64,000 bases of DNA. Origin: Methanotrichaceae archaeon. Its GTDB lineage: Archaea; Halobacteriota; Methanosarcinia; Methanotrichales; Methanotrichaceae. Under the pieces are notes generated by a model. That model saw only the letters and a program-made list of their open reading frames with translations. It ran no database searches and was not told where the DNA came from. A program made the translations under genes and the position numbers. Positions within the stretch are counted from its first letter, which is position 1. Every line of letters starts with the position of its first letter. Below are positions 39,640-63,691 of this stretch, one piece after another. Where the stretch lies: contig CAWDLW010000020.1 in the NCBI GenBank assembly GCA_963803145.1, forward strand, positions 128,001 to 192,000. The letters are read 5' to 3'.

Positions 39640-39820
39640 GATGTTAAGCCCTGTTGTAACAACCATTATTAATATTAGGCATAATCTTTAGTATGTGATA
39701 CAAAATAACAATGGTAGCAGGGAGATGACTAATACCACAGGACCATAAACCAAGCTTAAGACATAATCTCTCAAAAGGCTCTTATCTGAATAGCTCATAC
39801 TCATCCTGGGGATCTGGCCT

Positions 39821-45663: not shown

Positions 45664-46617
45664 TCACATCCCTATTGATAGCTTCAGGGGTATCAGCACT
45701 TGGTCGATTTCGTAAATTATTCCATTGCTGTATCTCTTGGACTTAAGCACTTTAGCGCCGCCAACAATTCCTGCCTTAGTATCTATCGCAAGCGAAGACC
45801 CGTCAAGAGTCTTGACGGATGAAGCGTCGGTATTGTTGAGGACTGCTCTGCTCTCCACTATGTGATAGCTCAGCAAGGTCATCATATTGTCTTTATTTGA
45901 GCTTATTGATTTCATCGTTGCAGCAGGAACCTTTGAGAAAGCAGCATCGCTTGGGGCGAAGATTGTATACGGTCCTCCGCCAATAGCGCCCAGGCCGAAC
46001 AATCCCTGGCCGTTGAGGTTATCGACGAGACCTGCAGACTGGATATCACCTGCGAATGTTTTTATGTCTTTCAATTTATTCGCTGCATCTACGAAGCTCA
46101 TGCCTGCGCCCTTTTGCTTGGGCATCAGCACTTTATCGATGACATATATCGTGCCGTTATCGTAATTCTTGACCTGCAGCACATTTGCACCGTTCACCTT
46201 TAGGCCGCCTGTCGAGTTCAGGCTGAGGTTCTCTCCTTCCAGGGTTTCCACCGAGGAAAGACTGCTTAAATTGCCGAGAGTTCCATCATTCCAGACGACA
46301 TGATAGCTCAGGACTCTCTTCAGATCAGTCTGGTTCTCCATAAGGTTGCTCAGGTCTCCGGGGGCCAAAGCTGCAAAGGCGGCATCGCTGGGAGCGAATA
46401 CAATAAAAGAGCCATTGCCAATTATTAGAACCCCTTGGTTGTTCAAAGTCTCAGACATATTGGCATTCTGGACCGCCGTTGAGAACGTGGTTAGGTTCAG
46501 AGCCTTCGATTCATCTAGAATGCCATTGCTCGCTGTTGCACTACCCGCTGCCGTAGCCAGGCCTGCAGAAAGCAACGCAGCTGCTAATATTAATAAAGTT
46601 ACTTTGGTTGAAGCCAT
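45664..46617 (-). CDS. Secreted two-domain fasciclin (FAS1) protein
   Basis: Two FAPSDAAF...LSYH.V...NG.IY.ID.VL.P repeats and a signal peptide. Confidence 0.93.
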   Translation of the reverse strand: MASTKVTLLILAAALLSAGLATAAGSATASNGILDESKALNLTTFSTAVQNANMSETLNNQGVLIIGNGSFIVFAPSDAAFAALAPGDLSNLMENQTDLKRVLSYHVVWNDGTLGNLSSLSSVETLEGENLSLNSTGGLKVNGANVLQVKNYDNGTIYVIDKVLMPKQKGAGMSFVDAANKLKDIKTFAGDIQSAGLVDNLNGQGLFGLGAIGGGPYTIFAPSDAAFSKVPAATMKSISSNKDNMMTLLSYHIVESRAVLNNTDASSVKTLDGSSLAIDTKAGIVGGAKVLKSKRYSNGIIYEIDQVLIPLKLSIGM

Positions 46618-46879: not shown

Positions 46880-47884
46880 GTGAGGCTTTACCTAGCTATA
46901 GCGATTCTGCTGCTACTGGCCAATATTGCACAGGCGCATGTTCCGCTGTTCCCGGAAGGGAATGAGAATATATCTTCAGCCATGCTGATATCAGATCCGG
47001 GGAAATCGTGGGCTATCTATAGCACCATAAGCCCAGAAAGGCCGCAATATTATTCGTTTTATATGGACAAAGGCAAAGAGATTCTGCTAACGCTCCTAAA
47101 GACTGCAAACCCGACGGAAAAGGGCTTTGAACCAAATATGGCGCTTCTTGGGCCTGGGCTTAATTCCACGGGCACGCTTCCGAGTCATGTGAATATCCCC
47201 AAAGGCTATGGAGTCATCACTGTAAAAAGCAACAGCTCTGATCAGGCCGTTTATGAGCCCTTTGGGCCTAGCAGCTACTATCAGCAATCGGATCTTGATA
47301 TAGCAGCCCCCGAATCGGGCATGTATTATGTAGCGGTTTACAGCAACAATAATAGGAGTAATGTAAGTAGCAGTATGATCGGCCATTACAGTCTGGCCAT
47401 AGGCTATCGCGAAGAGTTCACCTTTGCAGAGAGGATTCTTACACCACTAAGACTTATATCAGTATATCAGTGGGAAGGACAAAGCCTGTCTACAATATTG
47501 ATGCCCATACTTGTAGCTTTTCTCATAGGGTTATTCGTCATCTGGCGCAGCACCATTCGGACTCTCTTTTATAGAGCAGGCACTTTGGCTGGTTTCCTAA
47601 TCCTCGGTACAGGCGCAACAGTGCTTTCCCAGATGGCCTTCAGCCTGATCCGTGCACCTGCAGGATCAGAGGTTGCTATAACAGTTCTATTGGCAATCAT
47701 CCCTGTAGTTCTCGGCGTTGTTTCATTGCGTTTATCACGAGGCGAGGCAGGAATTCTTCAAAGGGTTATGATGGCGGTCATAGGAACTATAGCTCTATTG
47801 GCCGGGTCCGGACTGATAGCGGGGCCTCTGCTGGCAATAGCTGCGAGCGTGCTGCCGTCGAGAAAAAGTGAATCTGCAGCCTAA
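46880..47884 (+). CDS. Exported protein with C-terminal multi-TM region
   Basis: Signal peptide ending AQA-H, YEPF motif, Y.LAIGYREEF and ~4-5 TMs. Confidence 0.75.
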   Translation: MRLYLAIAILLLLANIAQAHVPLFPEGNENISSAMLISDPGKSWAIYSTISPERPQYYSFYMDKGKEILLTLLKTANPTEKGFEPNMALLGPGLNSTGTLPSHVNIPKGYGVITVKSNSSDQAVYEPFGPSSYYQQSDLDIAAPESGMYYVAVYSNNNRSNVSSSMIGHYSLAIGYREEFTFAERILTPLRLISVYQWEGQSLSTILMPILVAFLIGLFVIWRSTIRTLFYRAGTLAGFLILGTGATVLSQMAFSLIRAPAGSEVAITVLLAIIPVVLGVVSLRLSRGEAGILQRVMMAVIGTIALLAGSGLIAGPLLAIAASVLPSRKSESAA

Positions 47885-48151: not shown

Positions 48152-48940
48152 TTGAGTATAGTGGGAAAGTTTTCGTTTGTCACTATAATTTACCTACTAT
48201 TAATATCTTGTACAGTATTATTAATGCAATCTGGAGCCGAGAACCAAAATCAACCGCCGAATATTCTCAGCTTAAGTCCTGATATGCCGAGCCCCCAGCA
48301 GGTAGGAGCGGTTATAACTTGGCGCGCAATAGCCTCTGATCCGGAAAACGATCCAATCTATTACAGGTTCTCAATAGACGGCCCTCAGACAGGAGGCCAA
48401 TGGAAAGTTATACAAGATTGGAGCCTGAGCAACACCTGGTCTTGGAAGGCTGGAGATAGTGATGCAGGAAGTTCTAATATCCAGGTGGAGATCCGAGATG
48501 GGAAACGCGGAGGCCCCTCCGATATAGATGCATTCAAAGAATATGATAATTACCAAATTATACAAAACCGGCCTGCCAACTTGAACGTAGAAGTGGCTAA
48601 CGATGTCTATTCCGATAAGGATCGCGTTGTATACTATTGCCAGGAAGGGAAGGACTTCTACGTTAAGAACAGAATCTATCTGACCGGACCTGATCTGAAT
48701 AAGGTAAAGAGCGTGAAGTACGTTCTACATCCATCCTTCCCGAATCCTGAACAAATCTCTGAAGATTCAAGCAATGATTTTGAAATATGGATATGGACCT
48801 GGGGGAAATTCCCTGTAAAGGCTATAATTACTACCAAGAGCGGCCAGCAGTTTGAGAAGGATTATGATTTTTCATTCAAATCCAAGTTTGAAGAGGCGCA
48901 AAGAATGGGAATACCCCAAGTTAGTAATTGTGAGGATTGA
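48152..48940 (+). CDS. Secreted Ig-like domain plus prokaryotic YEATS-like domain protein
   Basis: NQPP..SL.PD.PSPQ...W...ASDP.ND..YYRF...QDWS..NTW.W domain, then VKSVKYVLHPSFPNP...F.I..WTWGKFPV. Confidence 0.75.
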   Translation: MSIVGKFSFVTIIYLLLISCTVLLMQSGAENQNQPPNILSLSPDMPSPQQVGAVITWRAIASDPENDPIYYRFSIDGPQTGGQWKVIQDWSLSNTWSWKAGDSDAGSSNIQVEIRDGKRGGPSDIDAFKEYDNYQIIQNRPANLNVEVANDVYSDKDRVVYYCQEGKDFYVKNRIYLTGPDLNKVKSVKYVLHPSFPNPEQISEDSSNDFEIWIWTWGKFPVKAIITTKSGQQFEKDYDFSFKSKFEEAQRMGIPQVSNCED

Positions 48941-51900
48941 TGCTCCTCAAGCTTAGTCTTTTTTCTCAAGCGAAAAGGAATTCAAAGGCTTTAGGGTTAT
49001 TACTAGTTATCATATGTCTCTTATCGATCGGTCAAGCGAATGCAACATGTTCTGTTTCGACTGATAAGTCTCAATATAACCTAGGAGAAACTGTAACATT
49101 TCAATTCTCCGTAGATTGTGATTGTACTGCCAGTCTGGCGATTGTTTTGCCAGATGGTAGCGGCGGTGTCTTTTATTCTGAGGACGTTACTGCTGGCACA
49201 CATCAAACATCTGGCACGGCCTCAGAACCATGCGGAACACACACGGTGATTTTAAAGGTATCGTGCAACGGAGGGGTTCCAAATAAACCCAAACCTAACT
49301 ACTATCTCGCTGATTCTAGCAGTTCGAACTCATGCGAAGCAGAGTGTACCTATGATGTAATTTGTCCTCAACCATCCGGATGCACAGAGACCTATCGATG
49401 CAATAATAACGTTGCCGAAAGGCTATGTTATCAGAACGGAAACCAATATTGGCAAGTCTCTGATGACTGTAACGCCTACAGCCCCCAGCGACAATGCGTT
49501 AATGGTAACTGCGTAGATGTTACTCCGCCCCAACCATCCTGTAATCAACAGGCTTGCCAAAGCAAAAGTGGCCCTATTGACCAGCCTTATATTAGAGATG
49601 GCAAAATGTACCAGAGGTACAGGGAGTGCAACTGTGTTGGAGGCAATTGTCAGTGCAGCCAAGTTGAAAAGGAGGTGCCCTGTACAGGCATAATCTCCGG
49701 CAAAGTAACAGATTCTTCAAGTGGCACGCCGATATCTGGCGCATCGATTGTTATTGGTAGTTGGTCCGGTACAACTAATGCCAACGGTGCATTCAGTAGT
49801 TACCAGGCATTCTGTCCGTCTACAACTTATGTGCTAACATGTTCGGCTCAGGGTTACGTGCCCATCAGCCAGGATGTAGTAACTGACGGAAACGGAAATG
49901 CATACGTTCCTCTAACCCTTCAGCTGTCGTGCTCAGGCACAATCTCTGGTCATGTCTCCGATATCAATACTAAGTCTCCAATCCCTGGAGCAACATTATT
50001 AATCTGTCCAAGCGGAGGCGACTGCTGGTCTCCTCCACCTGTAGATTCAACAGGACTTTATAGCTCAGGCGGAAAGGCTTGTCCTTCAACTACCTATGAT
50101 GTAACCTGCTCTGTAGAAGGCTATAAGTCATCCACCCAAACTGTAACTACGGATAATAAAGGGAATGCATGGCAGGATTTCAAACTAGAGCCCAATTGTC
50201 AAGGCGAGATCTCTGGGCACGTTTCCGATTTTGAAAATAAATCTCCTATAATAGGCGCAACCTTATTGATATGCAAGAAAGGTGGAGATTGCTGGTCTCC
50301 TGCACCGGTAGATTCAACGGGGTTATACAGCTCAGGGAAGCAGGTATGTCCCTCGACCAGCTATGATCTAACTTGCTCTGCAGAAGGCTACAATTCTTCT
50401 ACCTTATCCGTAACCACTGATGATAAGGGAAACGCATGGCAAGACTTCAAATTGAAGCGCAATTGTCAGGGCATATTATCCGGCAAGGTACTCAATTCAA
50501 TCACCAATGAACCAGTCCAAGGCGCTAATCTGCTAATCTGCCAGAATGGGAAGTGTTTTGATCCAGTTATCACCGATTCTTCAGGCCAATACACCTTGAG
50601 CGGACTATGTCCATTGACCGATTATGAGATAACCTGCTCCGCTGAAGGTTACAAGACTTATGAGAATACGGGTACAACAAAAGATGATGGAAACTCACTG
50701 CATGAGATCCTCTTAGAGCCTGATTGCCAGGGTACGATTTCCGGCAAGGTGCTTGATGCTACTACCAAAGCCACTATCCAGGGGGCTAATCTACTAGTTT
50801 GCACGAACGGAAAGTGCATGGACCCGGTTATTACTGATTCAGAGGGTCAGTTTAGCTTGAGCAAGGTTTGTCCTTCGATAAGCTACGATATAACCTGTTC
50901 TGCATCTGGTTACATAACTTATCAGAGCACAAACACCACAGATGATAAAGGCAACTCGCTCCATGAAATCCTACTTGAGCCTGAATGCAAAGGCGCGATT
51001 TCCGGCAAAGTTCTAGATGGTCTAACCAATAATCCCGTTCAGGGAGCAAGCATAACGATTTGTCATAGTGGAAAATGCTCCGATCCAGTAACTACCGATT
51101 CAGCAGGCCAATATAGCTTCAATAAAGGTTGTCCATCGAGCGATTATGAGATAACCTGTTCTGCTTCAGGCTATCAAACATACAAGAATACAGGCAAGAC
51201 TGATGAAAAAGGAAATTCATTACATGAAATTCTTCTGGAGAGAGAGCTAACAATTAAAGTCTGGACCGATAAAACGGAATACAAAGCAGGCGAAGAAGTA
51301 ACTATCCATTACGAGACCAGCATTGAGAGCGCTGGTCGCAGGATATCCATTACTTCTACAGGGTCCCAGACACCTCCATTCAATCAGGTATTTGGGGAAA
51401 ATACATTCGCAAAGGAAAAGAGCGGAACTAGAAAGTTCACCCCAAATAAGGCTGGAACATACGAGATAAAGCTTGAAGCTTGGACGGATAACGATAAAAA
51501 AGAAGATCAATGCACGATTACCGTATGCGGTGGAACCATATCCGGCAAAGTATTGAACTCGCTTACCAACAAGCCAGTCCAAGGAGCAACGATAGCAATA
51601 TGCATAAATGGAAATTGCTCAAAGCCGATTGTTACCGATGCCTCAGGACAATATAGTTCGAACGGATTCTGTCCCGCAATCAATTACGACATAACATGCT
51701 CTGCAAGCGGCTACCAAACTTACAAGGGATCGAGCTATACAGATGAGAGTGGAAATTCTCTGCATGAAATCCTGTTAGAGCCTGAATGCAAAGGCACTAT
51801 TTCGGGCAAGGTCCTGAACTCACATACTAATAAGCCTGTTCAAGGTGCTACTATCACCTTCTGCGTTAACGATAAATGCCTAGATCCAGTAACAACTGAT

Positions 51901-54900
51901 TCAGCAGGCCAGTATAGCAAGAACGGCTGTCCTTCAACAAGTTACAATGTGACCTGCTCAGCCCCAGGCTACAAGGACAATCAGGGAGTGACTAATACCG
52001 ATGGGAATGGAAATGCAGTCTATGAGATCCAGCTTGAACCAGAATGCAAGGGTACTATATCCGGCAAGGTCCTCAACTCTTTGACTAATAATCCCGTTCA
52101 GGGGGCTAAGATAACAATTTGCCAGGATGTATATAATAAATGTTCAGATCCAGTGATTACCGACTCTTCAGGTCAGTTCGTTTACTCAAAAGGCTGTTCT
52201 GTAATGGGCTATAAGATAACCTGCTCTGCAGACGGCTATAAGACCTATCAGGACTCGAGCAATACAGACGATGACGGGAATTCTCTACACGAAATTCTCT
52301 TGGAGCCTGAAGGCCAAGGGGCAATATCGGGCAAGGTCCTGAACTCACTTACCAATAAGCTTGTCAAGGGTGCAACTGTCACTATCTGCGTGAATGGAAA
52401 GTGCTTGGACCCTGTAACAACCGATTCGGCTGGCCAATACAGCAAAAAAGGTTACCCATCTATTGATTATGAGATAACTTGTTCTGCCTCGGGTTATCAG
52501 AACTATACTAACACTGGCAAGACAGACGAGAAAGGAAACTCTCTACATGAGATTCTCTTAGAACCAAATTGCCAGGGTACAATTTCAGGTAAAGTTCTCA
52601 ACAGCCGGACAAATAAACCCGTTCAGGGAGCGAGCGTTAAAATTTGTCAGAGCAGCAGATGCTCAGATCCCATAACTACTGATGAAGCTGGCCAATACAG
52701 CATGAATAAGGGTTATCCTTCGGTCGATTATAATATAACCTGCACAGCTCAGGGTTACATAACATATCAAAAGACTGGCGTAACTGACGATAAGGGTAAC
52801 TCATTGCATGAGATTCTGCTTGAACCCAATTGCAATGGCATGATCTCAGGAAAAGTGATTAATGGGCTCACAAATAAACCAATTCAAGGAGCTAGCGTCA
52901 AGATTTGTCAATATGGAAAATGTTCAGACCCGGTTATTACCGGTTCTTCAGGTCAATATAGCTTTAATAAGGGTTGCCCATCCATAAGCTACAATATAAC
53001 CTGCTTAGCTAAAGGCTATAAGGATTATAGTGATACAGGCATTACAGATGATAGCGGAAATTCTTTAAACGAGATACTGCTTGAGCCTGATTGCTCAGGC
53101 AAGATATCTGGTAAAGTTCTCGATGGCCTGACAAACAAACCTATTCAGGGTGCAAGCATCAAGGTATGTCAGAGCGGCAGATGCTCAGATCCTGTTACTA
53201 CCGATTCAGCAGGCCAGTATAGTTTGAATAAGGGTTGTCCTTCCATCGATTATAATATAACTTGTACGGCTCAGGGCTATGAGACTGTTACAGAGCCAGG
53301 AAACACGGACGAAAAGGGCAATTCACCTCATGATTTCCTCCTCGAACCAATTTGTGACGGCACTATATCTGGTAAAGTGCTGGATGGCCAGACCAACTTG
53401 CCGGTTCAAAGCGCAAGTATTAAAATTTGTCAGCACGGAAGGTGCTCTGATCCAGTCATTACCGACTCTTCAGGCCAGTATAGCTTTAATAAAGGTTGTC
53501 CTTCGATCGACTATAATATTACATGTACAGCTCAGGGCTATGAGACTGTTACAGAGTCAGGAAACACAGACAATAAGGGTAACTCGCCTCATGATTTCTT
53601 ATTAGAACCTAGTTTAGCGCTTAAAATTTCGACCGATACAACAGAGTATAAAACAGGCGAAAATGTAATTATCCATTATGAGACGGGCGTTGAGAATGCC
53701 GGGCGAAGAATAACTGTCATGGAACAGGGAACAAAAACAACGCTATTCACTAAGACATTCGGCGAAAACGACTTTCAGAAAGAGAAGAGCGGAACCAGGA
53801 ATCTTACTATTGATAAACCTGGAACTTATATGGTTAAACTAGAAGCTTGGACCAGCAAAGAACACAAGGATGCCAGCTGCAAATTCAATGTCTCAGAGAA
53901 AGATCTAGCCCTCAAGATATGGACAGATAAAACAGAGTATAAAGTGGGCGATGAGGCGACCATTTACTATCAGACTGGTGCTGAGAATGCTGGTCGCCGA
54001 ATAATAGTTAGCTTAAATGGAACGCCTGTTACGACATTTGGAGAGAATAACTTCCCCAAGGAAGCAAACGGAACTAAGAAACTTACTTTGAATAAATCCG
54101 GGGCTTACACTGCCAAGCTGCAAGCATGGACCAGTAAGGAAAGCAAGGATGCAAGCTGTGAGTTCAATGTAGTTGAAAATAGGCAGCCAATCATAATCTC
54201 CATAAGCGCATCGCCTAAATCACCTCAGCAGCTATTTACCATTAAGACGATTGGCATAGTGCTAGTTCTAACTAAAGCGTCAGATCCTGATAATGACTCG
54301 TTGCAGTACAAGTTTGAGCTACGAAAGAAGGGCGAGGATTTCAAAGTAACACAGGATTTTAGCGCTATGCCATTATGGATATGGGAACCGCAAGATTCTG
54401 GAGAGTATGAGATTAGAGGAACGGTTACTGATGGTAAATCTGAAGTTAATCAGATAATAAATTATAGTATTATTAATAGGCCGCCGGTTTTCTGGATGAG
54501 CTTAGAGCCTCCAATTCAGGCTCAAGTCGGAACAAAAGTGAACTGTTCAGTAACAGCTTTTGACCTGGATAGTGATACAATCCAATTCAAATTCTGGCTA
54601 AAAGGTCCATCGACGAATAACCAGTGGCAGGCAAAGACTGACTGGATAAGCATACCTACTGATGGCTTTTTCAGCGATTATACATGGAACTGGATGCCAG
54701 GGCCTACAGATGTTGGGAAGAATGAGATAGACGTTTGGGTTAGAGATGGCAGCCATGCAGGCCCTGATGCATATGATGCGCATAATGTGTCTTCATATGA
54801 AATAGTAAATACGACAGGACCAAATGGTGCTCAATTTGAAATAACTTCGCTAAAAGCATTACCACAGTCTCCGCAGGAACTATTGAAATCGCCCAAAATA

Positions 54901-57408
54901 ATGTGTTCTATTCAAGCATCAAACCCTGGAAAGGATGCTCTGAGATACCAATTTGAATTGAAAAAGGAAGGTTCCGATTTCAAAGTTACCAGGGAATTTT
55001 CTGCTATGCCGATCTGGACCTGGGAGCCGAAAGAGGCAGGGAACTATGAGATTAAAGGTGTGGCTCAAAACAGCAAGGGACAGACGGCAGTCAAGGTAAT
55101 CGATTATTCCATTACTGGCAGCAAAGAGAATGAGATCAAGTTCAATGGCACATTGTATCGCAGCAATGCGCCAATGGGCTTTGCAGTTTATTACTTCAAA
55201 GTTGACAAGATTCTCGAAGGAGCCAATATCCCAGTAGGCGATCCCATTGGCGTGGACATATATGATGATTCGAAGCCGCTTGGCGAAAGAGGCCATGCTG
55301 ACTCACTCCGAGAAGGAGATAAGGCAGAGGTCTATGCCAGCATCGACACAGATAAAGGCAAGTGGAATGATGGATATGAGATAGCTTGGCTAGCGGGCAT
55401 AACCGGAGATAAGAAATATTACATTAATAAAATCGGATCTGGGAATGAACCTCCGAAGCTTCTCTTCTTGGAGCCGGATAAGCCCAGTCCGCAGAATCCC
55501 AATACGCAAATAACCTGGATGGCAAAGGCGGAAGATCCTGATAATGATATCATAAGTTACAGGTTTGAGCTAAAAGGACCATCCTCTCATGATTATAAGG
55601 TGGTCAAAGACTGGTCTCAGGAGAATACCTGGACCTGGAATGCAGGAAATGATGATACAGGCAATAATACCATTCGTGTCCAGGTAAAAGACGGCAAACA
55701 TGGAGACGTTGATGACGAGGCATATGCCAATTATACAATAGAACCCAAATTGGAAGATATCAGGTTCATTGGTACCTGCTATCGTAATCAAACGGTCATA
55801 GGGTTTAGGGCATATTACTTCAAAGCTGATAAGATCCTCGAAGGTCCAGACATTCCAAAAGATGACTTGATAGCCGTATATACATATGAGAGTAAGTATG
55901 CTCCCGATCACGGAGGCAGCTATGATGCCCTCGATCAAGGAGATCAAGCAGAAGTTTATGCTAGCATCGATACATCCAAAGGCAAGTATAACACTGGATT
56001 TGAGACGGCATGGCAATCTAGTATAGTGGAAGATAAGAGATATTACGTCAAGAAGATTACACCTGAGCTGGAAATAAATGTCTCGACCGATAAGCCAGAG
56101 TATGAAATTGGTGATGAAGTAAACATAAATTATGAGACGAACATTGAAAACGCTGGCCGAAGGATAACTGTTAGTTCTGTGCCTGGGACACAAACGCCTT
56201 CTTTCAGCAAAGAATTCAGTGAGAATGATTTAGCAAGCGAAAAGAGTGGAACCTGCAAGCTCGAAATGGATGAGCCTGGAATCTATGTTGTAAAACTAGA
56301 GGCGTGGATAGGCAATGAACATAAAGATGTTGAATGCAAATTCGTAGTAAATGAGCTAAAAATAGAAGTTTCCACAGATAAACAAGAGTATAACGTAGGT
56401 GAGGAAACAACTATTAATTATAATATTAATATAGGTGATGCTCATCGTCAAATTGTAGTAGACTCAATACCAGGGTCCCAAACCTCAGGTTTCTCTAAGA
56501 CTTTTACTGATGATACTTTTTCAAAGGATAAGAGTGGGGCTAAAAAGCTAATTTTGAATATTCCAGGAACATATGAAGTTAAATTTGATGCGTGGACCAC
56601 CAAACAAAATCTTGAAGAAATAATCGATTTCAATGTCGTTGGGAATGAAGGATCAAAACCGCCATCGCAATGGACCTACGAATTAACCAGAAACCAATAC
56701 TTCTCCAAAGTAAGGGGTGATATAATCGAGATTGAACCCCTAGAGTATAACGAAATCGATGATAAGCATGTAGCGGTAGATATCAAGGTTACAAACACTA
56801 GATCAACCAGATATAATGTGGAGACATATAAAGGTCCCTCTATAGGCGAGAATTTCTACGATAGAACGTTTACTCTCACGGAGTCTAATTCAGACACTGG
56901 TTCAAACGAAATAACTATTCGAGCTGTTCGAGGTCTAAAATGTAGCGATCCAAGACTATCAAACAATCCGAAACTATCAAATGCATACGTTGCCACGATA
57001 GACGTCAATGTTGATTATGGTACATATTTTTTGGAGCATGTAATTGGATTATTGGGAATGAAAGGAGTTAAGAGCTGCAAACCAACAACAGAAACGCTTG
57101 TGACGATAAAAGATGGAATAAAAAGCGAGTCATTCCCTAATGAACCCATGTCAGATGTTAGCTTACAAGATTGGGCCTTAAAATCTAAGGATTATTTTGT
57201 AAATCATCCCGATGTTCTCGTAAAAGCAGTTGGCGAATGTGGAGTTGATTATGCAGCGGGTCAGCTGTTAGATTTATTAACAGGAACTATTTATTCTAAA
57301 TTAACGGAGATAATCGCTTTAGTACAAAATGCGGTACAATCTTTCACAGAACCTTCAGAAGAGACTGTTACGATATATTTCTACAAGGGAGACCCAAAGT
57401 TGACGTAA
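48940..57408 (+). CDS. Giant secreted multi-repeat surface protein (~2,822 aa)
   Basis: Signal peptide; 14 carboxypeptidase-regulatory-like beta-sandwich repeats (G.ISG.V....T..P.QGA...C....TDS.GQY...Y.ITCSA.GY); 6 (S/W)TD..(E/Q)Y..G(E/D) domains; several PSPQ/DPDND Ig-like domains. TGATG coupling to the upstream gene. Confidence 0.9.
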   Translation: MLLKLSLFSQAKRNSKALGLLLVIICLLSIGQANATCSVSTDKSQYNLGETVTFQFSVDCDCTASLAIVLPDGSGGVFYSEDVTAGTHQTSGTASEPCGTHTVILKVSCNGGVPNKPKPNYYLADSSSSNSCEAECTYDVICPQPSGCTETYRCNNNVAERLCYQNGNQYWQVSDDCNAYSPQRQCVNGNCVDVTPPQPSCNQQACQSKSGPIDQPYIRDGKMYQRYRECNCVGGNCQCSQVEKEVPCTGIISGKVTDSSSGTPISGASIVIGSWSGTTNANGAFSSYQAFCPSTTYVLTCSAQGYVPISQDVVTDGNGNAYVPLTLQLSCSGTISGHVSDINTKSPIPGATLLICPSGGDCWSPPPVDSTGLYSSGGKACPSTTYDVTCSVEGYKSSTQTVTTDNKGNAWQDFKLEPNCQGEISGHVSDFENKSPIIGATLLICKKGGDCWSPAPVDSTGLYSSGKQVCPSTSYDLTCSAEGYNSSTLSVTTDDKGNAWQDFKLKRNCQGILSGKVLNSITNEPVQGANLLICQNGKCFDPVITDSSGQYTLSGLCPLTDYEITCSAEGYKTYENTGTTKDDGNSLHEILLEPDCQGTISGKVLDATTKATIQGANLLVCTNGKCMDPVITDSEGQFSLSKVCPSISYDITCSASGYITYQSTNTTDDKGNSLHEILLEPECKGAISGKVLDGLTNNPVQGASITICHSGKCSDPVTTDSAGQYSFNKGCPSSDYEITCSASGYQTYKNTGKTDEKGNSLHEILLERELTIKVWTDKTEYKAGEEVTIHYETSIESAGRRISITSTGSQTPPFNQVFGENTFAKEKSGTRKFTPNKAGTYEIKLEAWTDNDKKEDQCTITVCGGTISGKVLNSLTNKPVQGATIAICINGNCSKPIVTDASGQYSSNGFCPAINYDITCSASGYQTYKGSSYTDESGNSLHEILLEPECKGTISGKVLNSHTNKPVQGATITFCVNDKCLDPVTTDSAGQYSKNGCPSTSYNVTCSAPGYKDNQGVTNTDGNGNAVYEIQLEPECKGTISGKVLNSLTNNPVQGAKITICQDVYNKCSDPVITDSSGQFVYSKGCSVMGYKITCSADGYKTYQDSSNTDDDGNSLHEILLEPEGQGAISGKVLNSLTNKLVKGATVTICVNGKCLDPVTTDSAGQYSKKGYPSIDYEITCSASGYQNYTNTGKTDEKGNSLHEILLEPNCQGTISGKVLNSRTNKPVQGASVKICQSSRCSDPITTDEAGQYSMNKGYPSVDYNITCTAQGYITYQKTGVTDDKGNSLHEILLEPNCNGMISGKVINGLTNKPIQGASVKICQYGKCSDPVITGSSGQYSFNKGCPSISYNITCLAKGYKDYSDTGITDDSGNSLNEILLEPDCSGKISGKVLDGLTNKPIQGASIKVCQSGRCSDPVTTDSAGQYSLNKGCPSIDYNITCTAQGYETVTEPGNTDEKGNSPHDFLLEPICDGTISGKVLDGQTNLPVQSASIKICQHGRCSDPVITDSSGQYSFNKGCPSIDYNITCTAQGYETVTESGNTDNKGNSPHDFLLEPSLALKISTDTTEYKTGENVIIHYETGVENAGRRITVMEQGTKTTLFTKTFGENDFQKEKSGTRNLTIDKPGTYMVKLEAWTSKEHKDASCKFNVSEKDLALKIWTDKTEYKVGDEATIYYQTGAENAGRRIIVSLNGTPVTTFGENNFPKEANGTKKLTLNKSGAYTAKLQAWTSKESKDASCEFNVVENRQPIIISISASPKSPQQLFTIKTIGIVLVLTKASDPDNDSLQYKFELRKKGEDFKVTQDFSAMPLWIWEPQDSGEYEIRGTVTDGKSEVNQIINYSIINRPPVFWMSLEPPIQAQVGTKVNCSVTAFDLDSDTIQFKFWLKGPSTNNQWQAKTDWISIPTDGFFSDYTWNWMPGPTDVGKNEIDVWVRDGSHAGPDAYDAHNVSSYEIVNTTGPNGAQFEITSLKALPQSPQELLKSPKIMCSIQASNPGKDALRYQFELKKEGSDFKVTREFSAMPIWTWEPKEAGNYEIKGVAQNSKGQTAVKVIDYSITGSKENEIKFNGTLYRSNAPMGFAVYYFKVDKILEGANIPVGDPIGVDIYDDSKPLGERGHADSLREGDKAEVYASIDTDKGKWNDGYEIAWLAGITGDKKYYINKIGSGNEPPKLLFLEPDKPSPQNPNTQITWMAKAEDPDNDIISYRFELKGPSSHDYKVVKDWSQENTWTWNAGNDDTGNNTIRVQVKDGKHGDVDDEAYANYTIEPKLEDIRFIGTCYRNQTVIGFRAYYFKADKILEGPDIPKDDLIAVYTYESKYAPDHGGSYDALDQGDQAEVYASIDTSKGKYNTGFETAWQSSIVEDKRYYVKKITPELEINVSTDKPEYEIGDEVNINYETNIENAGRRITVSSVPGTQTPSFSKEFSENDLASEKSGTCKLEMDEPGIYVVKLEAWIGNEHKDVECKFVVNELKIEVSTDKQEYNVGEETTINYNINIGDAHRQIVVDSIPGSQTSGFSKTFTDDTFSKDKSGAKKLILNIPGTYEVKFDAWTTKQNLEEIIDFNVVGNEGSKPPSQWTYELTRNQYFSKVRGDIIEIEPLEYNEIDDKHVAVDIKVTNTRSTRYNVETYKGPSIGENFYDRTFTLTESNSDTGSNEITIRAVRGLKCSDPRLSNNPKLSNAYVATIDVNVDYGTYFLEHVIGLLGMKGVKSCKPTTETLVTIKDGIKSESFPNEPMSDVSLQDWALKSKDYFVNHPDVLVKAVGECGVDYAAGQLLDLLTGTIYSKLTEIIALVQNAVQSFTEPSEETVTIYFYKGDPKLT

Positions 57409-57469
57409 GTAAAAAAATTTGTAGAGTCTACTAAGGGCGTATTATACTACTGGCGAGAGGCGAGAGTGG

Positions 57470-58480
57470 ATGAGGCAGGACCTGAAAATGCTGATGGTTG
57501 TAGTATTGCTATTTTTTATCCGGGGAGTGACCGCAGAGGAAGTGCCAGATGGAACCATATATGGGCATGTCTATGATGCCGATACTAAGCAGCCGCTATC
57601 TCAGGCTTTTGTATACTGCCAGGATACCAATTGCCCTAAACAAACGACCGATAAAGATGGATATTATACCATTGCAGGGTGTTTTTCACCCTCTACTTCG
57701 TACATTATTAAGTGTACTAAGTTCGGCTATGAGTCATCCAGTAAGACGGTTGTAACAGATAAACAGGGAAAGGCTGAAGAATCTTTTTCTATTAAGAAAG
57801 CCACCGAAAAAGAAAATTCAATTAATGCGCAGTCATGGATCTCAAAAGGAGATGATTTAAACAATCAAGGCAATTATGAGGGTGCCGCTGAAGCCTATGC
57901 AAAGGCTATAGCGCTTAATCCTTCCTTAGAAAACGATCAATGGTTCAAAATAGGTTTTGCATTTCTGATGGCGAAAAAATATCAAGAGTCCATTGACGCC
58001 TACAACAAAGTATTGGAATCAGATCCATCAGATACAGAAGCATTGCTGTGGATAGGTATAGCCCTTCGCGATTCTGGCAAAAAAGACGAAGCTATAAAAT
58101 ATTTCGATAAAGTCATAAATGAAAATCCACATCATTCAAAGGCTTGGAACAATAAGGCAATATGTCTAATGGAGTTAGGAAATCAGGAAGAAGCAATCCA
58201 ATGCTATGATAGAGCTATCGAATACGCCGAGGATGATAGTGATGCTTCCGCTTATTCAGATAACAAAGGAAATGCTCTCTTTAAGATGGGAAGGCATGAA
58301 GAGGCACTTAAGGCGTATGATAAGGCCATTGAATTAGCTCCAAGATATGGAAATCCCCAGTTTGATAAAATTGTAGCGCTTAGAAAGCTTGGTCGAGAAG
58401 ATGAAGCTAACCAATTGCAAAATAAATATGGTTGCACTACAGAAGATTTAGAAATTTGGGAAAAGAATTGGGGATCTTAA
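57470..58480 (+). CDS. Secreted carboxypeptidase-regulatory-like domain plus TPR protein
   Basis: DGTIYGHVYDA.TKQPLSQA.VYCQ domain followed by ~5-6 TPRs. Confidence 0.88.
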   Translation: MRQDLKMLMVVVLLFFIRGVTAEEVPDGTIYGHVYDADTKQPLSQAFVYCQDTNCPKQTTDKDGYYTIAGCFSPSTSYIIKCTKFGYESSSKTVVTDKQGKAEESFSIKKATEKENSINAQSWISKGDDLNNQGNYEGAAEAYAKAIALNPSLENDQWFKIGFAFLMAKKYQESIDAYNKVLESDPSDTEALLWIGIALRDSGKKDEAIKYFDKVINENPHHSKAWNNKAICLMELGNQEEAIQCYDRAIEYAEDDSDASAYSDNKGNALFKMGRHEEALKAYDKAIELAPRYGNPQFDKIVALRKLGREDEANQLQNKYGCTTEDLEIWEKNWGS

Positions 58481-58537
58481 CTCCTATCATTTATTATGCT
58501 GAAGAGAGGTTTGTGAGTAGTTAGGGGTTGGAATAAG

Positions 58538-59311
58538 ATGAAATTAGGCGGAATTTCTTTAGTTATGCTACTTGTCATATGTGTCAATGGTGTAGTAATT
58601 GCTGAAGATGGCTCAACATCTGGAGGCTTAATCTATGGTCACGTCTACGATGCTGATACTAAGCAGCCGCTATCTCAGGCTTGGGTGTATTGCCAAGATA
58701 TTAAAACCCCAAAAGAGATAACTGATAGCCAGGGATATTATGCCATTAAAGGCGATTTCTTGCCTTCAAAGACCTATAATATCGAATGCACTAAGTAAGG
58801 CTATAAATCAACCCAAGTTAGCTCGACGACAGACGAAAACGGCAAAGCGAGGGCAGATATTTATTTGGAATCTAGTTCATCTAAAAGCGATGCTGGCGCA
58901 TCAGCTTCATTTACCTCATTACCATTGAATGTGACTCCATCAGCAAGCAGAACCCTGCCAATAAATATCACTGTACCGAATGATATCAACTTGCATCGAG
59001 ATAATAGTTACTCAATCTCAGGCAAAGTATTCGATCCCAATAGAAATGAAAATGTTGATGCTAATGATAATGGTCTTTCCGGCTGGTTGATTAATCTGGA
59101 GCAACCTGCAGGTATAGTTATCGCTAATGCTACAAGTAACGGTGCCGGGGATTATGCTTTCAGCGGCCTGAACCCAGGGATATACGTTATCTATGAGGTT
59201 CTCCCCACAGGCTGGGCTGCGGTTATGCCTGCTGATGGCAAATATACTGTAAATTTGACGGATAGTGACTTAACGGGTCTCAACTTTGCAAATAAAGAGA
59301 TATCCACTTGA
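58538..59311 (+). pseudogene. Secreted carboxypeptidase-regulatory-like plus SdrD-B-like domain protein, broken by one in-frame TAA
   Basis: Reads ...IECTK*GYKSTQVSSTTDENGKARADIYLESSSS..., continuous with ORF 58865. C-terminal SISGKVFD.N.N...D..D.GL.GW.INL...G.Y.F.GL.PG.Y...E...GW...LNFAN. Confidence 0.82.
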
Positions 59312-59486
59312 TTATTCAGCAACAGGTCTATCGCTGATTCAGTGAAGCCAAGGATAATTTGCAATACTTTCAGCTAGGATCTGTAATATTATATTTTAAT
59401 TATTATTTATAGATTGTAATAACTCTGCGTATTCTTTAGAAAGGATTAAGTGCCGAGCGCTGTTTATATGATCAGAGGCTGGGCTG

Positions 59487-60257
59487 ATGAGAAAGGACCT
59501 GAAAAGGCTAATGGTTATAGTATTGCTGTTTTTCTTGTGGGAAGTGACTGCAGAGGAAGTACCAGATGGCACCATCTATGGGCATGTATATGATGCCCAA
59601 ACTAAGCAGCCGCTATCTCAGGCTTTCGTGTATTGCCAGGGGATTAATTCACCAAAGGAAACAACCGATAGCCAAGGATATTACGCAATAGAAGGCGGCT
59701 TTATAGCTTCTGAGACGTATTTTATAGAGTGTGCCAAATATGGTTATAAATCGGATAAGAAAAGTATAACAACAGATTTGAATGGAATTGGAGAAATGGA
59801 TTTTTATTTAGGGACTGGAGATATATTTGGCAAATCACCAGAAGCTCAATCAGCATCTCAGAAAAATATACAGAATATTCAAAACCAAAAGTCAGGAGAT
59901 ATCAAGGGTGGATTGCCAGGAATAATGATTATTTCTCCAGAAGAGGGCTCTACAATTCCTTCAGGCAATATCATTGTCTCAGTCAGTGTCACTAACTTCT
60001 CTCTTGTGAACAAGCTAGGAGCTAGTAGTATCCCGAGAGAAGGGCATCTTCATTACTATATGGATGTCCCTGTTCCAACAACCCCGGGCAAACCAGCTGT
60101 TACCGCCACTGGAACCTTCGCGCCAAAATATGAAACTGCATTTACATGGCCAAGTGTTGCCCCGGGCAAACACAAATTCACTGTTCAGCTTGTGAACAAC
60201 GACCACACTCCAGTAATACCCCTGGTTTATGCCACGGTTAATGTTACTGTGATATAA
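59487..60257 (+). CDS. Secreted carboxypeptidase-regulatory-like domain plus His-motif Ig-like (DUF4399-like) domain
   Basis: Shared N-domain; C-domain I.SP.EG...GHLHYYMD...PGKH..TVQLVNNDHTP. Confidence 0.82.
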   Translation: MRKDLKRLMVIVLLFFLWEVTAEEVPDGTIYGHVYDAQTKQPLSQAFVYCQGINSPKETTDSQGYYAIEGGFIASETYFIECAKYGYKSDKKSITTDLNGIGEMDFYLGTGDIFGKSPEAQSASQKNIQNIQNQKSGDIKGGLPGIMIISPEEGSTIPSGNIIVSVSVTNFSLVNKLGASSIPREGHLHYYMDVPVPTTPGKPAVTATGTFAPKYETAFTWPSVAPGKHKFTVQLVNNDHTPVIPLVYATVNVTVI

Positions 60258-60316
60258 TATCAACGACGGAGTTAAAATGGCAAACCTATTCGAAGCAATA
60301 TAATGGGGTAAGGGCA

Positions 60317-61228
60317 ATGAAATCTATTGCAATCAGTCTGATTATGCTTTGGATCGCTGTAATCAATACAGTGGCAGCTGAGGATCAATCCATGCCCGAT
60401 GGCACCATCTATGGGCACGTATATGACGCTCAGACCAAGCAGCCATTATCAAATGCCTGGGTGTATTGCCAGGAGGTTAAGTGCCCCAAGCAATTGACAG
60501 ATAGCAATGGATACTACGCCATAGAGAATTGCTTCTCGCCTTCAAGCACTTATGTTATTGATTGCACAAAAAATGGTTATCCAACAGCTAAAAAAACAGT
60601 TGAAACGGATTCTAGCGGCAAAGCCGAAATTGATTTTATTTTAAGTAATGCGCCAAATCCTTCGCCAAACACTGAAGCAGACGATGCCTATGCCAAAACC
60701 AAGGAACCGGCAACGACTAGCTATATCAACTTTACAAAAGAGGCCGAATTTCAATACATGCCAGCAAGCCAGAACGGCAGCAGTGAGACAAAATGGGTGC
60801 CATGTGACACCGAATCTAATGACAGCAATGATTGGGTGAAACTTACTGACCGCAATGGAACGACATATTGGGTGAAACGTCTCTGCGTCCAGAATTATAA
60901 TGTATCATCAATCGGGACTGCCATCACATCAGCGGGCTCCACAAATGCTAATGGCATCAGGTTGTTTGGCTATATACATGATGTCGAAAGCGATATGCCA
61001 ATTAATGGTGCACGAGTAGTTGCAACAGATCAAGCAGGTAATAGCTTAACGGCTGTTACAGATATGAATGGATATTTTACTTTAAATCTATTGAAAAATG
61101 TCCAATATACCGGCAATGTTGGAGCAGATGGATATCTCAATCTTCCAATTGAAATAATGTTATCAAGTGCTGAATTTCCCGAAAAAGTACTAGGGCCCGA
61201 GACGATGAAGCTTACGCCTCGGGATTAG
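60317..61228 (+). CDS. Secreted protein with two carboxypeptidase-regulatory-like domains
   Basis: Shared N-domain; second copy LFGYIHD.ES..PI.GA.V...TD.NGYF.L...ADGY. Confidence 0.82.
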   Translation: MKSIAISLIMLWIAVINTVAAEDQSMPDGTIYGHVYDAQTKQPLSNAWVYCQEVKCPKQLTDSNGYYAIENCFSPSSTYVIDCTKNGYPTAKKTVETDSSGKAEIDFILSNAPNPSPNTEADDAYAKTKEPATTSYINFTKEAEFQYMPASQNGSSETKWVPCDTESNDSNDWVKLTDRNGTTYWVKRLCVQNYNVSSIGTAITSAGSTNANGIRLFGYIHDVESDMPINGARVVATDQAGNSLTAVTDMNGYFTLNLLKNVQYTGNVGADGYLNLPIEIMLSSAEFPEKVLGPETMKLTPRD

Positions 61229-61470
61229 TTTACTACACATCCTGATACAGTCTGAGAGATTTGCAGCTTTGACCTCAGGATGACAACCGTAGGCAAATTG
61301 GATTCTTCGTGCTTCTGAAATGCCGATATCTTATTGATCAAGACAGACTCAGAAGGTAATTGTGAATGATTAGCTATCCCACTACCGCGAGGATTGACAC
61401 CTTTGATGATAATTCCGATAATTTGATAAGCTATAAGCTAGCAAGCATTTGCCATAAGTAGGCTGGGAGA

Positions 61471-62652
61471 ATGAGGTCCGCCGCAATCTGCCTTGTATTG
61501 CTTACAATTGCTGCGATTGATCTAGTAGTAGCAGAGGATCAATCCGTGCCAGATGGCACAATCTACGGGCATGTCTACGATGCCGATACAAATCATCCGC
61601 TATCTCAAGCTTTCGTTTATTGCCAGGATATCAAGTGCTCGAAGCCGACGACCGACAGCACAGGCTATTATGCCACTGATTCTTGTTTCTCGCCATCCAA
61701 AACCTATACAATTCAATGTACCAAGCATGGATACGAAACAGCAACAAAAAGCGTAACGACGAATCAGGATGGCAAAGCTGTAGCTGACTTTAATTTGGAG
61801 CCGGAGGGTTCTAAACCAGCTAATGTGCAAGCAAATCAAATATCACCTGATTCTGGTTTAATTACTAACCCACAAGATGCTGAAATCTGGATCAACAAAG
61901 GAAGGGATTTTGAACGAGTGGGTAAATACAACGATTCAGTAGATGCATATAATAGAGCTATCGAGATCAATCCTAATTTAGCAGAGGCTTGGCTAGATAA
62001 AGTTGTCCCCCTTGATAACATGGGCAAACACAGCGACGCCATGCAGGCTATAGACAAGGCTATCGAAATCGATCCCAATTTTTCAAGTGCCTGGTACTTG
62101 AAAGCACAATCACTAATTGATCAGAAAAATCCCGAGGATGCCATTAAAGCGTTTAATAACGCAATTGAAATCGACCCACGCTCTCCTCAAGCACTATCTT
62201 CCAGTATTTACATAGGTTTTGCTCTTATGGATCAGGGTGAGTATGATGAGGCCATTAAGATATACGACAAAATTATCGCGATCGATCCGAATTCTATTGA
62301 GAATATATTAGATAACAAAGGATATGCCCTCAGTCACGTAGGCAAGTATGACGAGGCTCTGCAAGCTTTCGATCTAGCTATAGGAATCAATCGAAACAAT
62401 TATGAAACTTCTGATGCATGGGAGGGCAAAGGCGATGTATTTAGATCACAGAATAAATATGAGGATGCTATTAAGTGCTATGACGAGGCCATCAGAATCA
62501 ATTCGGATAATAGTATTGCTTGGGAAAACAAAGGATTAGCTCTTCAAAAACTTGGTCGAACTTCGGAATCAGATGCTGCCTTTGCCAAGGTCAAAGAGTT
62601 GAAACGGCTAGGTAAGTTCATGGAGGCTGACTATCAGCCAAGCTCCAAATAG
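61471..62652 (+). CDS. Secreted carboxypeptidase-regulatory-like domain plus TPR protein
   Basis: Shared N-domain followed by ~7 TPRs. Confidence 0.88.
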   Translation: MRSAAICLVLLTIAAIDLVVAEDQSVPDGTIYGHVYDADTNHPLSQAFVYCQDIKCSKPTTDSTGYYATDSCFSPSKTYTIQCTKHGYETATKSVTTNQDGKAVADFNLEPEGSKPANVQANQISPDSGLITNPQDAEIWINKGRDFERVGKYNDSVDAYNRAIEINPNLAEAWLDKVVPLDNMGKHSDAMQAIDKAIEIDPNFSSAWYLKAQSLIDQKNPEDAIKAFNNAIEIDPRSPQALSSSIYIGFALMDQGEYDEAIKIYDKIIAIDPNSIENILDNKGYALSHVGKYDEALQAFDLAIGINRNNYETSDAWEGKGDVFRSQNKYEDAIKCYDEAIRINSDNSIAWENKGLALQKLGRTSESDAAFAKVKELKRLGKFMEADYQPSSK

Positions 62653-62944
62653 AGATTGGGGTTATGAAGTTATTCCAGTACTAACCTCCAAATCGCAGAA
62701 ATCTGAGAAAGAAAGGTTTCTTTTAGCAAGGAACCATCAGTGAGAGTACTTTGGAAAAAATACCTCGCCGATGATCAAATCGTAGGATGTATCAATGAGA
62801 TTGGCGTGAGGTATGTCATTAACTACCGTGAGAGTGTTCGCTAGGCTAGATAAGAATTATGAACACTTCCTTAGTGATGCATGTTGTGAATATCGCTCGC
62901 TCTATCAGCGAAAACTCTTTCTACGATTTCTGCTCAAGAGTGGT

Positions 62945-63691
62945 ATGCAACAGAGCATCAATACCTGTCCTAAATCAACATCCTCCGACAGATCTCGCGC
63001 TATATATCTCTCAACGCCCATCAATGCCCTAGTCGAAGGGATCTTCGAGGAAAATGTACCCTTTGCCGAGATAAAGCAGCACGGAGACTTCGGTCTAGGC
63101 ACCTTCAATGACCTGGATGGAGAGATGATGATGCTCGATGGAATAGTTTACCAGATCAACTCTGAAGGCCATGTCAATATTATAGGTGAAGAAGCTCTCA
63201 CACCATTCGCCTGCGTTACGTTCTACAGATCTGTATGCTATGATGGCATAGAACACGAAATGGATTACAATTCCTTCATCGATATGCTTAACGGTCTTAT
63301 TCCATCAACCAATCTGTTTTACGCTATAAGAGCTGAAGGATTATTTTCCTATATCAGAACGCGATCTGTGCCGAAACAGGAGAGCTACCGTCCTATTGCC
63401 GAGGCCACAAAGGCCCAACGTACCTTTGAATTTCAGAACATTAAGGGAACCATTGCAGGATTCTTCACACCATCCTTCATGGCATCTCTAAATGCTCCTG
63501 GATTCCACTTGCATTTCCTCTCTTCCGACCTCTCGCATGGGGGCCACCTTTTGGAATGCAGACCATCAAATGCAGAGATCGGCATCCAATTCATCGATAG
63601 ATTGGAGCTCTCCCTGCCGATGACCCTCGATTACTTGACTCAGGATTTCAACCTCGACGTAAAGAAGGATTTGGAGAAGGCAGAAAGGTAA
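62945..63691 (+). CDS. budA: Alpha-acetolactate decarboxylase
   Basis: HGDFGLGTF..LDGEM, TPFA, RTRSVP.Q and GFHLHF...GGHLL Zn motifs. Start probably ATG 62945. Confidence 0.93.
   Translation: MQQSINTCPKSTSSDRSRAIYLSTPINALVEGIFEENVPFAEIKQHGDFGLGTFNDLDGEMMMLDGIVYQINSEGHVNIIGEEALTPFACVTFYRSVCYDGIEHEMDYNSFIDMLNGLIPSTNLFYAIRAEGLFSYIRTRSVPKQESYRPIAEATKAQRTFEFQNIKGTIAGFFTPSFMASLNAPGFHLHFLSSDLSHGGHLLECRPSNAEIGIQFIDRLELSLPMTLDYLTQDFNLDVKKDLEKAER

Follow-up and report, generated by a model that had tools for sequence, protein, structure and literature searches.

Organization of the locus

We analysed a 64,000-nucleotide stretch of DNA (the window) from a Methanotrichaceae archaeon, positions 128001-192000 of contig CAWDLW010000020.1 (C20) in assembly GCA_963803145.1 (G000; 4.13 Mb, 99.3% complete, 6.8% contamination). 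The subject of this report is a gene cluster on its + strand in which a gene for a protein of 2,823 amino acids (aa), referred to here as the scaffold, is followed by five genes (g1 to g5, the satellites) that open with the same domain (the N-module) and end in different ones (the payloads). The genes are separated by 57 to 242 bases, and an alpha-acetolactate decarboxylase gene (62813-63691) marks the end of the locus.

The scaffold gene (48937..57408) encodes a signal peptide, an N-terminal Ig-like domain (aa 37-150) and a Cys-rich region (aa 151-250; both within 49045..49686), which are kept in all four scaffolds compared here, and then 14 repeats of the CarboxypepD_reg type. Repeats 1-6 (aa 251-769) lie at 49687..51243 and include, in repeat 2 (aa 334-419), the predicted docking site discussed below; repeats 7-14 (aa 866-1558) lie at 51532..53610. 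The Pfam model PF13620 matches the scaffold with 484 bits in 14 stretches, and our own profile of the N-module likewise finds 14. The protein also has further Ig-like domains, Big_9-like domains (four copies in the scaffold), two copies of a domain that we call 'FYR', and a unique C-terminal domain. Most of the repeats (49687-53610) are preceded by an extra linker Cys (E-P-x-C-x-G), giving five Cys per unit versus four in the satellites.

Each satellite opens with a Sec-type signal peptide, followed by an N-module of about 84 residues starting G-T-I-Y-G-H-V-Y-D-A. In g1 (57470..58480, 336 aa) the N-module (57551-57802) is followed by a linker and a TPR payload, and TPR is also the payload of g5 (61471..62652, 393 aa; N-module 61555-61806). 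The payload of g2 (58538..59311; N-module 58625-58876) is an SdrD_B domain (Pfam E 5.9e-11), while that of g3 (59487..60257, 256 aa; N-module 59568-59819) is DUF4399-like, a weak match of 20.6 bits that stays under the cut-off of 28 and with which a second lead (Atlas) agrees. Finally, g4 (60317..61228, 303 aa; N-module 60401-60652) carries a linker and a second CarboxypepD_reg domain from about position 60965. We found no hydrophobic 19-mer past the signal peptide in g1 to g5 or in the scaffold. The locus encodes an operon-like set of secreted, unanchored proteins, which probably make up one extracellular assembly. No public sequencing run, RNA included, was listed for 57400-62700.

An earlier reading of the window from its sequence alone (the sequence-only reading) had described five co-oriented secreted genes after a protein of about 2.8 thousand residues, a common N-terminal domain, C-termini of the kinds listed above, 14 repeats of the same fold family in the giant protein and the lack of a C-terminal transmembrane anchor. 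All of this was borne out. Over the first 115 or so residues, identity of the satellites to g1 is 49-60% and 38 columns are invariant; the five modules score 122-162 bits with their profile, well above anything expected by chance. Corrections to that reading are that position 48152, where the span that it gave (48152..62652) begins, is the start of a separate 262-aa gene and that g2 carries an in-frame TAA.

That TAA (58796-58798) lies within the N-module, where the aligned paralogues have F, Y, N or H, and the frame past it continues for 170 more codons, through an intact SdrD_B domain. Since the downstream frame is intact and TAA is the ordinary stop of g1, we regard g2 as either a recently broken gene or an assembly error. 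Stop-codon recoding was considered and ruled out: TAA is the normal stop of g1, and 9 of 46 homologues have Tyr at this position, one base away.

The N-module is a distinct clade of a known domain family

The shared domain of about 85 aa is not new; it is the known Pfam CarboxypepD_reg / CarbopepD_reg_2 domain (PF13620 / PF13715), with membership by gathering score. Scores against PF13715 were 41.4 (g1), 34.0 (g3), 65.2 (g4) and 38.1 (g5) bits against a cut-off of 32.2, and the N-module of g2 scored 158-162 bits with the module profile. Taken alone, the 84-aa modules are 57-64% identical. An AlphaFold2 (AF2) model of the g4 module, built from a 40-row alignment, had a predicted local distance difference test score (pLDDT) of 88.9 and a predicted template modelling score (pTM) of 0.77, and has the form of a transthyretin-like (prealbumin-like) beta-sandwich. 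Its top fold matches were domain II of carboxypeptidase D and the transthyretin-like (TTL) domain of human CPD (best E 7.5e-7, TMq 0.73); it also matched the X-module of type II cohesin-X-dockerin complexes, the SusC NTE domain and SlaB of the Sulfolobus S-layer. A sequence match to the PDB (1h8l, E 0.0077) was also found. The Pfam placement and the structure matches thus show that both fold and family were already known.

The same domain type also occurs in NF052345, the model of the Kustd1514-family S-layer glycoproteins. The match reached 189 bits against a whole-protein cut-off of 1400 and covered only a repeat-type region at model positions ~1310-1470, which falls short of membership of that family.

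Four Cys are conserved in the module. All four were present in 34 of 46 distinct module sequences, and the second and third were jointly absent in seven, which suggests that these two form a pair. In the remaining sequences the first alone was absent twice, the third alone once, the fourth alone once and three together once.

PF13620 gave 44 matches in the genome, of which 25 lie outside this contig, whereas a profile of the five modules, run over 45,502 six-frame open reading frames of the genome, matched at this locus only. The satellites scored 122-162 bits and the 14 scaffold repeats 25-52 bits. In other proteins of the same genome, CarboxypepD_reg stands inside the chain or at its C-terminal end. 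We built a tree from 15 satellite modules and 24 scaffold repeats of four loci; a single branch (support 98/90) divided satellite modules from scaffold repeats, and satellites of different loci interleaved, which indicates that the split between the two is older than the loci. The sequence comparisons therefore place the N-module as a distinct clade within its known family, with the scaffold's 14 repeats as its only relatives in the genome.

At the DNA level, the modules of g1 to g5 are only 62-68% identical, with a proportion of synonymous differences (pS) of 0.63-0.85, which is saturated, and a nonsynonymous divergence (dN) of 0.24-0.36. Low identity together with saturated synonymous sites indicates old duplicates under purifying selection rather than recent copies. 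The same figures rule out a recombination handle or gene conversion as the cause of the constant 5' part.

Payload exchange and linkage to the scaffold across the family

We searched 5.8 billion proteins with the module profile, restricted to longer proteins, and obtained 42 matches at E <= 1e-8: four proteins of the window, one multi-repeat outlier (67 bits) and 37 family members of 218-845 aa. A pool of 47 sequences was formed from 41 database proteins, g2 and five locus open reading frames, some of which duplicate database proteins. The module was the first domain in all 47, starting at residue 4-69, and was always present as a single copy. A later hydrophobic 19-mer was absent in 46 of the 47, the remaining one having an internal segment. 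An exhaustive search of 1.84 billion representatives returned 104 proteins at E <= 1e-30, and the best 150 listed comprised multi-repeat, scaffold-like proteins as well as some 30 single-module satellites, their module lying at residue ~17-45.

Payloads were diverse. They included TPR, long beta-propeller-like repeat arrays, a repeat ending Y-E-Y-M-P-V-S-Y, Big_9-like domains, a second CarboxypepD_reg, SdrD_B and several domains without a Pfam match. Closely related modules can carry unrelated payloads: g5 (TPR) groups with a satellite of locus L016 (Big_9-like), and g1 (TPR) groups with the satellite of locus L013, which has a different payload. Conversely, the payloads of g2 and g3 have module-free paralogues elsewhere in the genome (54% and 66% identity). 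Unrelated payloads on sister modules, together with payload paralogues that lack the module, make the exchange of payloads behind a fixed N-module directly visible.

A metagenome scan yielded seven loci, four of which were at least 9 kb long; L014 and L015 are the same in sequence, leaving three distinct long loci. In each of them a scaffold is followed by satellites on the same strand, namely a 2,314-aa scaffold and four satellites in L012, a 1,043-aa scaffold and one satellite in L013, and a 967-aa scaffold and two satellites in L014. These scaffolds are homologous to that of the window from the N-terminus on, sharing its signal peptide, Ig-like domain, Cys-rich modules and scaffold-clade CarboxypepD_reg repeats. 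Thus, a scaffold lies directly upstream of one to five satellites in all four loci with enough flank (the window, L012, L013 and L014). The module is therefore not a domain scattered through the genome or unlinked to the giant protein, the outcome that the sequence-only reading had named as fatal to its proposal.

The C-terminal regions of the two shorter scaffolds, read by eye and without a Pfam match, differ from each other: that of L013 (1725-3242) recalls a cysteine peptidase by its Cys and His motifs, while that of L014 (3590-4630) shows a pattern reminiscent of a TIM-barrel hydrolase.

Among genomes, the family is patchy. At the class level 4 of 41 genomes matched at E <= 1e-5, and at the family level 9 of 105 matched at E <= 1e-8, both counts including the source genome, which was the only one with more than two satellite-type genes. 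A profile survey of the kind that had been proposed thus recovered varied payloads and, in the four loci with enough flank, linkage to the scaffold, although in a patchy distribution and with distant members in genomes that lack a scaffold. Stand-alone module proteins also exist (G005, G042 and P0137); those of G005 and G042 have little beyond a signal peptide and the module.

Predicted docking of the N-module on scaffold repeat 2

The sequence-only reading had suggested that a complex prediction of the N-domain against domains of the giant protein would be informative, and such a prediction returned a candidate interface. We folded scaffold residues 37-420 (Ig-like domain, Cys-rich region and repeats 1-2; 4-row alignment) together with the g4 module (97 residues; 15-row alignment). 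The complex scored 0.61 (0.62, 0.61 and 0.59 in separate runs), while the best of three controls, all unrelated proteins, scored 0.00. In a benchmark, 116 of 157 solved complexes attained this mark, as did 2 of 215 mismatched pairs, figures that are a rough guide only, own alignments having been used. The runs agreed in at least 94% of contacts, with a partner pLDDT of at least 85.

The predicted interface involves residues 351-368 and 390-400 of scaffold repeat 2 and residues 25, 27, 29, 31, 36, 37, 39, 41, 61, 63-65 and 69 of the module (numbering of the 97-residue construct). The residues involved alternate along the equivalent strands of the two domains, so that the contact in the model is a pseudo-symmetric one between sheet faces. 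The model supports, as a prediction, the binding of the N-module to scaffold repeat 2, though it does not show it.

A proposed scaffold with interchangeable heads, and its alternatives

We tentatively favour, at somewhat below even chances, the reading that the N-module docks homotypically on a surface scaffold and thereby displays binding heads that can be interchanged. The part of the scaffold would be played by the 2,823-aa protein, with its 14 tandem transthyretin-like beta-sandwich repeats. The satellites would be exported by their Sec signal peptides, each consisting of a beta-sandwich of the sister clade, a low-complexity linker and a binding-type head that differs from one satellite to the next. 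One sheet face of the N-module would pack on the matching face of a scaffold repeat, so that a single scaffold could hold many satellites and present their interchangeable heads at the cell surface. What leads us to this reading is the clade-specific kinship of modules and repeats, the upstream scaffold in all four loci, purifying selection, payload exchange and a complex prediction that passed its controls. The data show gene structure, family membership, clade structure, synteny, selection and payload exchange; the binding itself is a prediction of the model, and we infer that the proteins are located at the envelope and serve in adhesion or in contact with a matrix. The proposal of the sequence-only reading, an address module that displays payloads on the giant protein, thus gains from the kinship, the synteny and the docking score, while distant members without a scaffold and a conserved surface outside the interface speak against it.

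Several of our results weigh against the favoured reading. Distant family members (83-116 bits) occur in scaffold-free genomes; G059 encodes a 580-aa satellite (116 bits), and in G059, G005 and G042 no scaffold is present in the fetched flanks, nor did a profile of the scaffold N-terminus detect one elsewhere in these genomes. At E <= 1e-5, the family is absent from both further species of the genus. None of the complex controls was a CarboxypepD_reg domain, so that the pass may reflect a generic tendency of homologous beta-sandwiches to pair; it may also stem from a remembered transthyretin-like dimer, or from the module packing in the place of an absent neighbouring repeat. Furthermore, conservation is no higher in the interface than elsewhere in the module (mean column entropy 1.40 versus 1.19 bits). 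Counted from the module's first Gly, the most conserved stretch is positions 1-24, mostly outside the interface; of its likely exposed residues, Y4, H6, Y8 and T12-K13-Q14 lie outside and F/W20, Y22 and Q24 inside. Conserved residues outside the interface leave part of the module's conservation unexplained, and a second ligand may exist.

In one alternative, the partner of the module would be a constituent of the envelope (the sheath, or the S-layer or its glycan) rather than the scaffold, and scaffold and satellites would be attached to it side by side, much as S-layer proteins of Gram-positive bacteria and their paralogues are held by SLH or CWB2 domains. Satellite-type proteins in scaffold-free genomes and the stand-alone module proteins would fit such parallel attachment, as would the aromatic-rich set of best-conserved exposed residues (Y4, H6, Y8, T12-K13-Q14, F/W20, Y22), for which the interface accounts only in part, and the occurrence of the same domain type in the S-layer model NF052345, a likeness at the domain level only (189 bits versus 1400). 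We nevertheless consider it unlikely: it has no known ligand, and it explains neither the constant place of the core family directly downstream of a scaffold in four of four loci nor the docking prediction that passed.

The unremarkable conservation of the predicted interface would also be expected if the module were a plain beta-sandwich spacer, derived from a scaffold repeat by duplication and domain shuffling and without specific binding. CarboxypepD_reg is a widespread, spacer-type domain (a control search was positive in 11 of 14 named genomes, with the 44 matches already given for this one), and it stands internally or C-terminally in other proteins of the genome. However, at the very N-terminus of a secreted protein without an anchor, a spacer has nothing from which to keep a distance, and a mere stalk would hardly be always single and always first (47 of 47), remain under purifying selection across saturated synonymous divergence, form its own clade across loci or exist as a module-only protein. 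A generic stalk is therefore distinctly improbable in our judgement. We give even less credence, to the point of judging it highly improbable, to self-assembly, in which satellites would polymerise through their N-modules into a pilin-like fibre or lattice and the scaffold would be a separate product. Module-only proteins exist, and the predicted contact on equivalent strands of homologous domains makes module-module pairing conceivable. The pilin or polymerisation variant that the sequence-only reading had entertained did not stand up, though: the signal peptides are Sec-type, with a hydrophobic core before an A-x-A-like site, rather than class III pilin signals; only about six residues precede the first strand, which leaves no N-terminal donor strand; and there is no C-terminal sorting signal.

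Our favoured reading of homotypic docking on the scaffold can be carried further. Methanotrichaceae may have their own cellulosome-like display, in which plug and socket belong to the same beta-sandwich family and up to about a dozen swappable heads are presented. Those heads (TPR, beta-propeller-like, Ig-like) would have been exchanged in the course of evolution while the N-terminal plug stayed fixed. We regard this extended form as doubtful; if it is true, the system could govern filament bundling, the formation of digester granules and attachment to syntrophic partners. Methanothrix and related archaea count among the chief producers of methane that consume acetate in wetlands and anaerobic digesters, and the cohesion of Methanothrix filaments, granule formation and contact with partner bacteria are poorly understood. 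A scaffold-and-satellite system, if true, would add candidate adhesion or matrix proteins, and it would be an example of protein display by homotypic pairing of a very common beta-sandwich domain.

Other features in and around the locus

The 262-aa gene at the start of the cluster (48152..48940, + strand) encodes a secreted protein with a signal peptide, one Big_9-like domain and a prokaryotic YEATS-like domain (PF20305, 2e-20). Its stop overlaps the start of the scaffold gene, and its sole hydrophobic segment is N-terminal. A YEATS-like fold inside an exported protein was unexpected. In locus L030, from a genome of another genus (G057), an 886-aa scaffold-like gene lies between two homologues of the 262-aa protein that are 60-61% identical to it over ~229 residues.

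The 'FYR' domain, of ~115 aa and without a Pfam family, occurs twice in the window scaffold (aa 2063-2178 at 55123..55470, and 55750-56076, both + strand) and as a single copy in each of the L013, L014 and L030 scaffolds, with 45-67% identity. Its AF2 model (pLDDT 80.7) has a weak likeness to the C345C/netrin-like domain of complement C3 (6xzu_B, E 2.2e-4, TMq 0.55); sequence searches of the PDB with this domain and with g3 returned nothing useful. As a universal docking site it was ruled out, since the L012 scaffold lacks it. At 208460-209110 of the same contig, ~17 kb past the window end, a 217-aa frame contains a domain paralogous to the N-terminal Ig-like domain of the scaffold (49.6 bits, profile positions 1-80).

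Just upstream, at 46880-47884, lies a gene for a protein of 334 aa that opens with a signal peptide, has four hydrophobic segments in its C-terminal part and gave no match in Pfam or NCBIfam. We considered it as a conserved membrane anchor and rejected it, since no homologue was present in any related locus fetched. The locus is adjoined by a gene on the - strand (45664-46617) for a protein with two fasciclin domains (PF02469, 6e-54), likely an extracellular adhesion protein. Farther upstream, also on the - strand, is the R subunit of a type I restriction enzyme (ResIII, EcoEI_R_C; 36892-39666), which, taken with the patchy occurrence of the surface locus, is a hint that this region of the genome is variable.

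Comparison with known systems

Surface proteins of Methanothrix discussed so far comprise the sheath protein MspA, proteins related to the S-layer and a quinoprotein, with SqpA also named (PMC10470525). In the search listings and the parts of papers covered, we found no description of the satellite-module family. The adhesin-like proteins of Methanobrevibacter and Methanosphaera resemble the scaffold in being large archaeal surface proteins of Ig-like repeats, and a carboxypeptidase regulatory-like domain is present in a few of them (1 and 3), but they mostly have N-terminal transmembrane anchors, and the parts of that paper covered describe no scaffold-plus-satellite arrangement (PMC11532034).

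The signal peptides, read from sequence, have a charged n-region, a hydrophobic core and an A-x-A-like site before E/D, which is not the class III signal of archaeal type IV pilin-like proteins. Likewise, we found no C-terminal hydrophobic 19-mer of an archaeosortase or sortase signal (PGF-CTERM or LPXTG type) in the giant protein, the five satellites or the 47 family sequences. SLH and CWB2 domains (the latter in Cwp proteins of Clostridioides difficile) are constant envelope anchors common to a main surface protein and its variable paralogues, partly encoded in one locus; they have other folds, usually occur in three tandem copies and bind a cell-wall polymer. Neither domain was found in the Pfam scan of the locus proteins.

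A parallel in position is the NTE of SusC-like proteins (PF13715; PDB 6ytc, 9hfj), which has the same Pfam family and fold and likewise follows the signal peptide immediately, at the very N-terminus. For the NTE of SusC-like TonB-dependent transporters of Bacteroidota, the authors suggest a role in interaction specificity, while its function is still unknown (PMC7782687). The NTE is followed by a TonB box, a plug and an outer-membrane barrel, whereas behind the N-module come a linker and soluble binding domains, and the archaeon has no outer membrane. The locus proteins are not SusC-like TonB-dependent transporters, as no plug or TonB-dependent receptor family was found in the Pfam scan. In carboxypeptidase D, the TTL-type domain is a C-terminal appendage of a metazoan peptidase; there is no peptidase domain here. 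The X-module of type II cohesin-X-dockerin complexes (2b59, 4wi0, 4u3s) resembles the N-module in fold (Foldseek E 6.8e-5 to 3.3e-4) and, weakly, in sequence by profile comparison (E 0.0019 versus 4wi0_B). It is part of a docking unit, though it works with an adjacent dockerin, which is absent at this locus.

This leads to the cellulosome, with whose dockerin and cohesin the sequence-only reading had drawn an analogy. The logic is indeed similar, in that a large secreted scaffold with tandem receptor modules, a small constant module on diverse secreted proteins and clustered genes are found in both. Dockerin and cohesin proteins are also known from anaerobic methanotrophic (ANME) archaea (PMC9012536). 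However, the Pfam scan revealed no cohesin or dockerin family in the giant protein (16 families), in g2 to g4, or among the best 25 of 38 families for g1 and the best 25 of 36 for g5; the best-listed families of g1 and g5 were mostly of TPR or helical-repeat type, plus the two CarboxypepD_reg families. Without either partner, the locus is not a cohesin-dockerin system. Further differences from the cellulosome are that the constant module is N-terminal here, that the payloads are binding-type domains rather than enzymes and that the binding is predicted. Since the N-module is homologous to the scaffold's own repeats, any pairing between them would be homotypic, unlike that of cohesin and dockerin.

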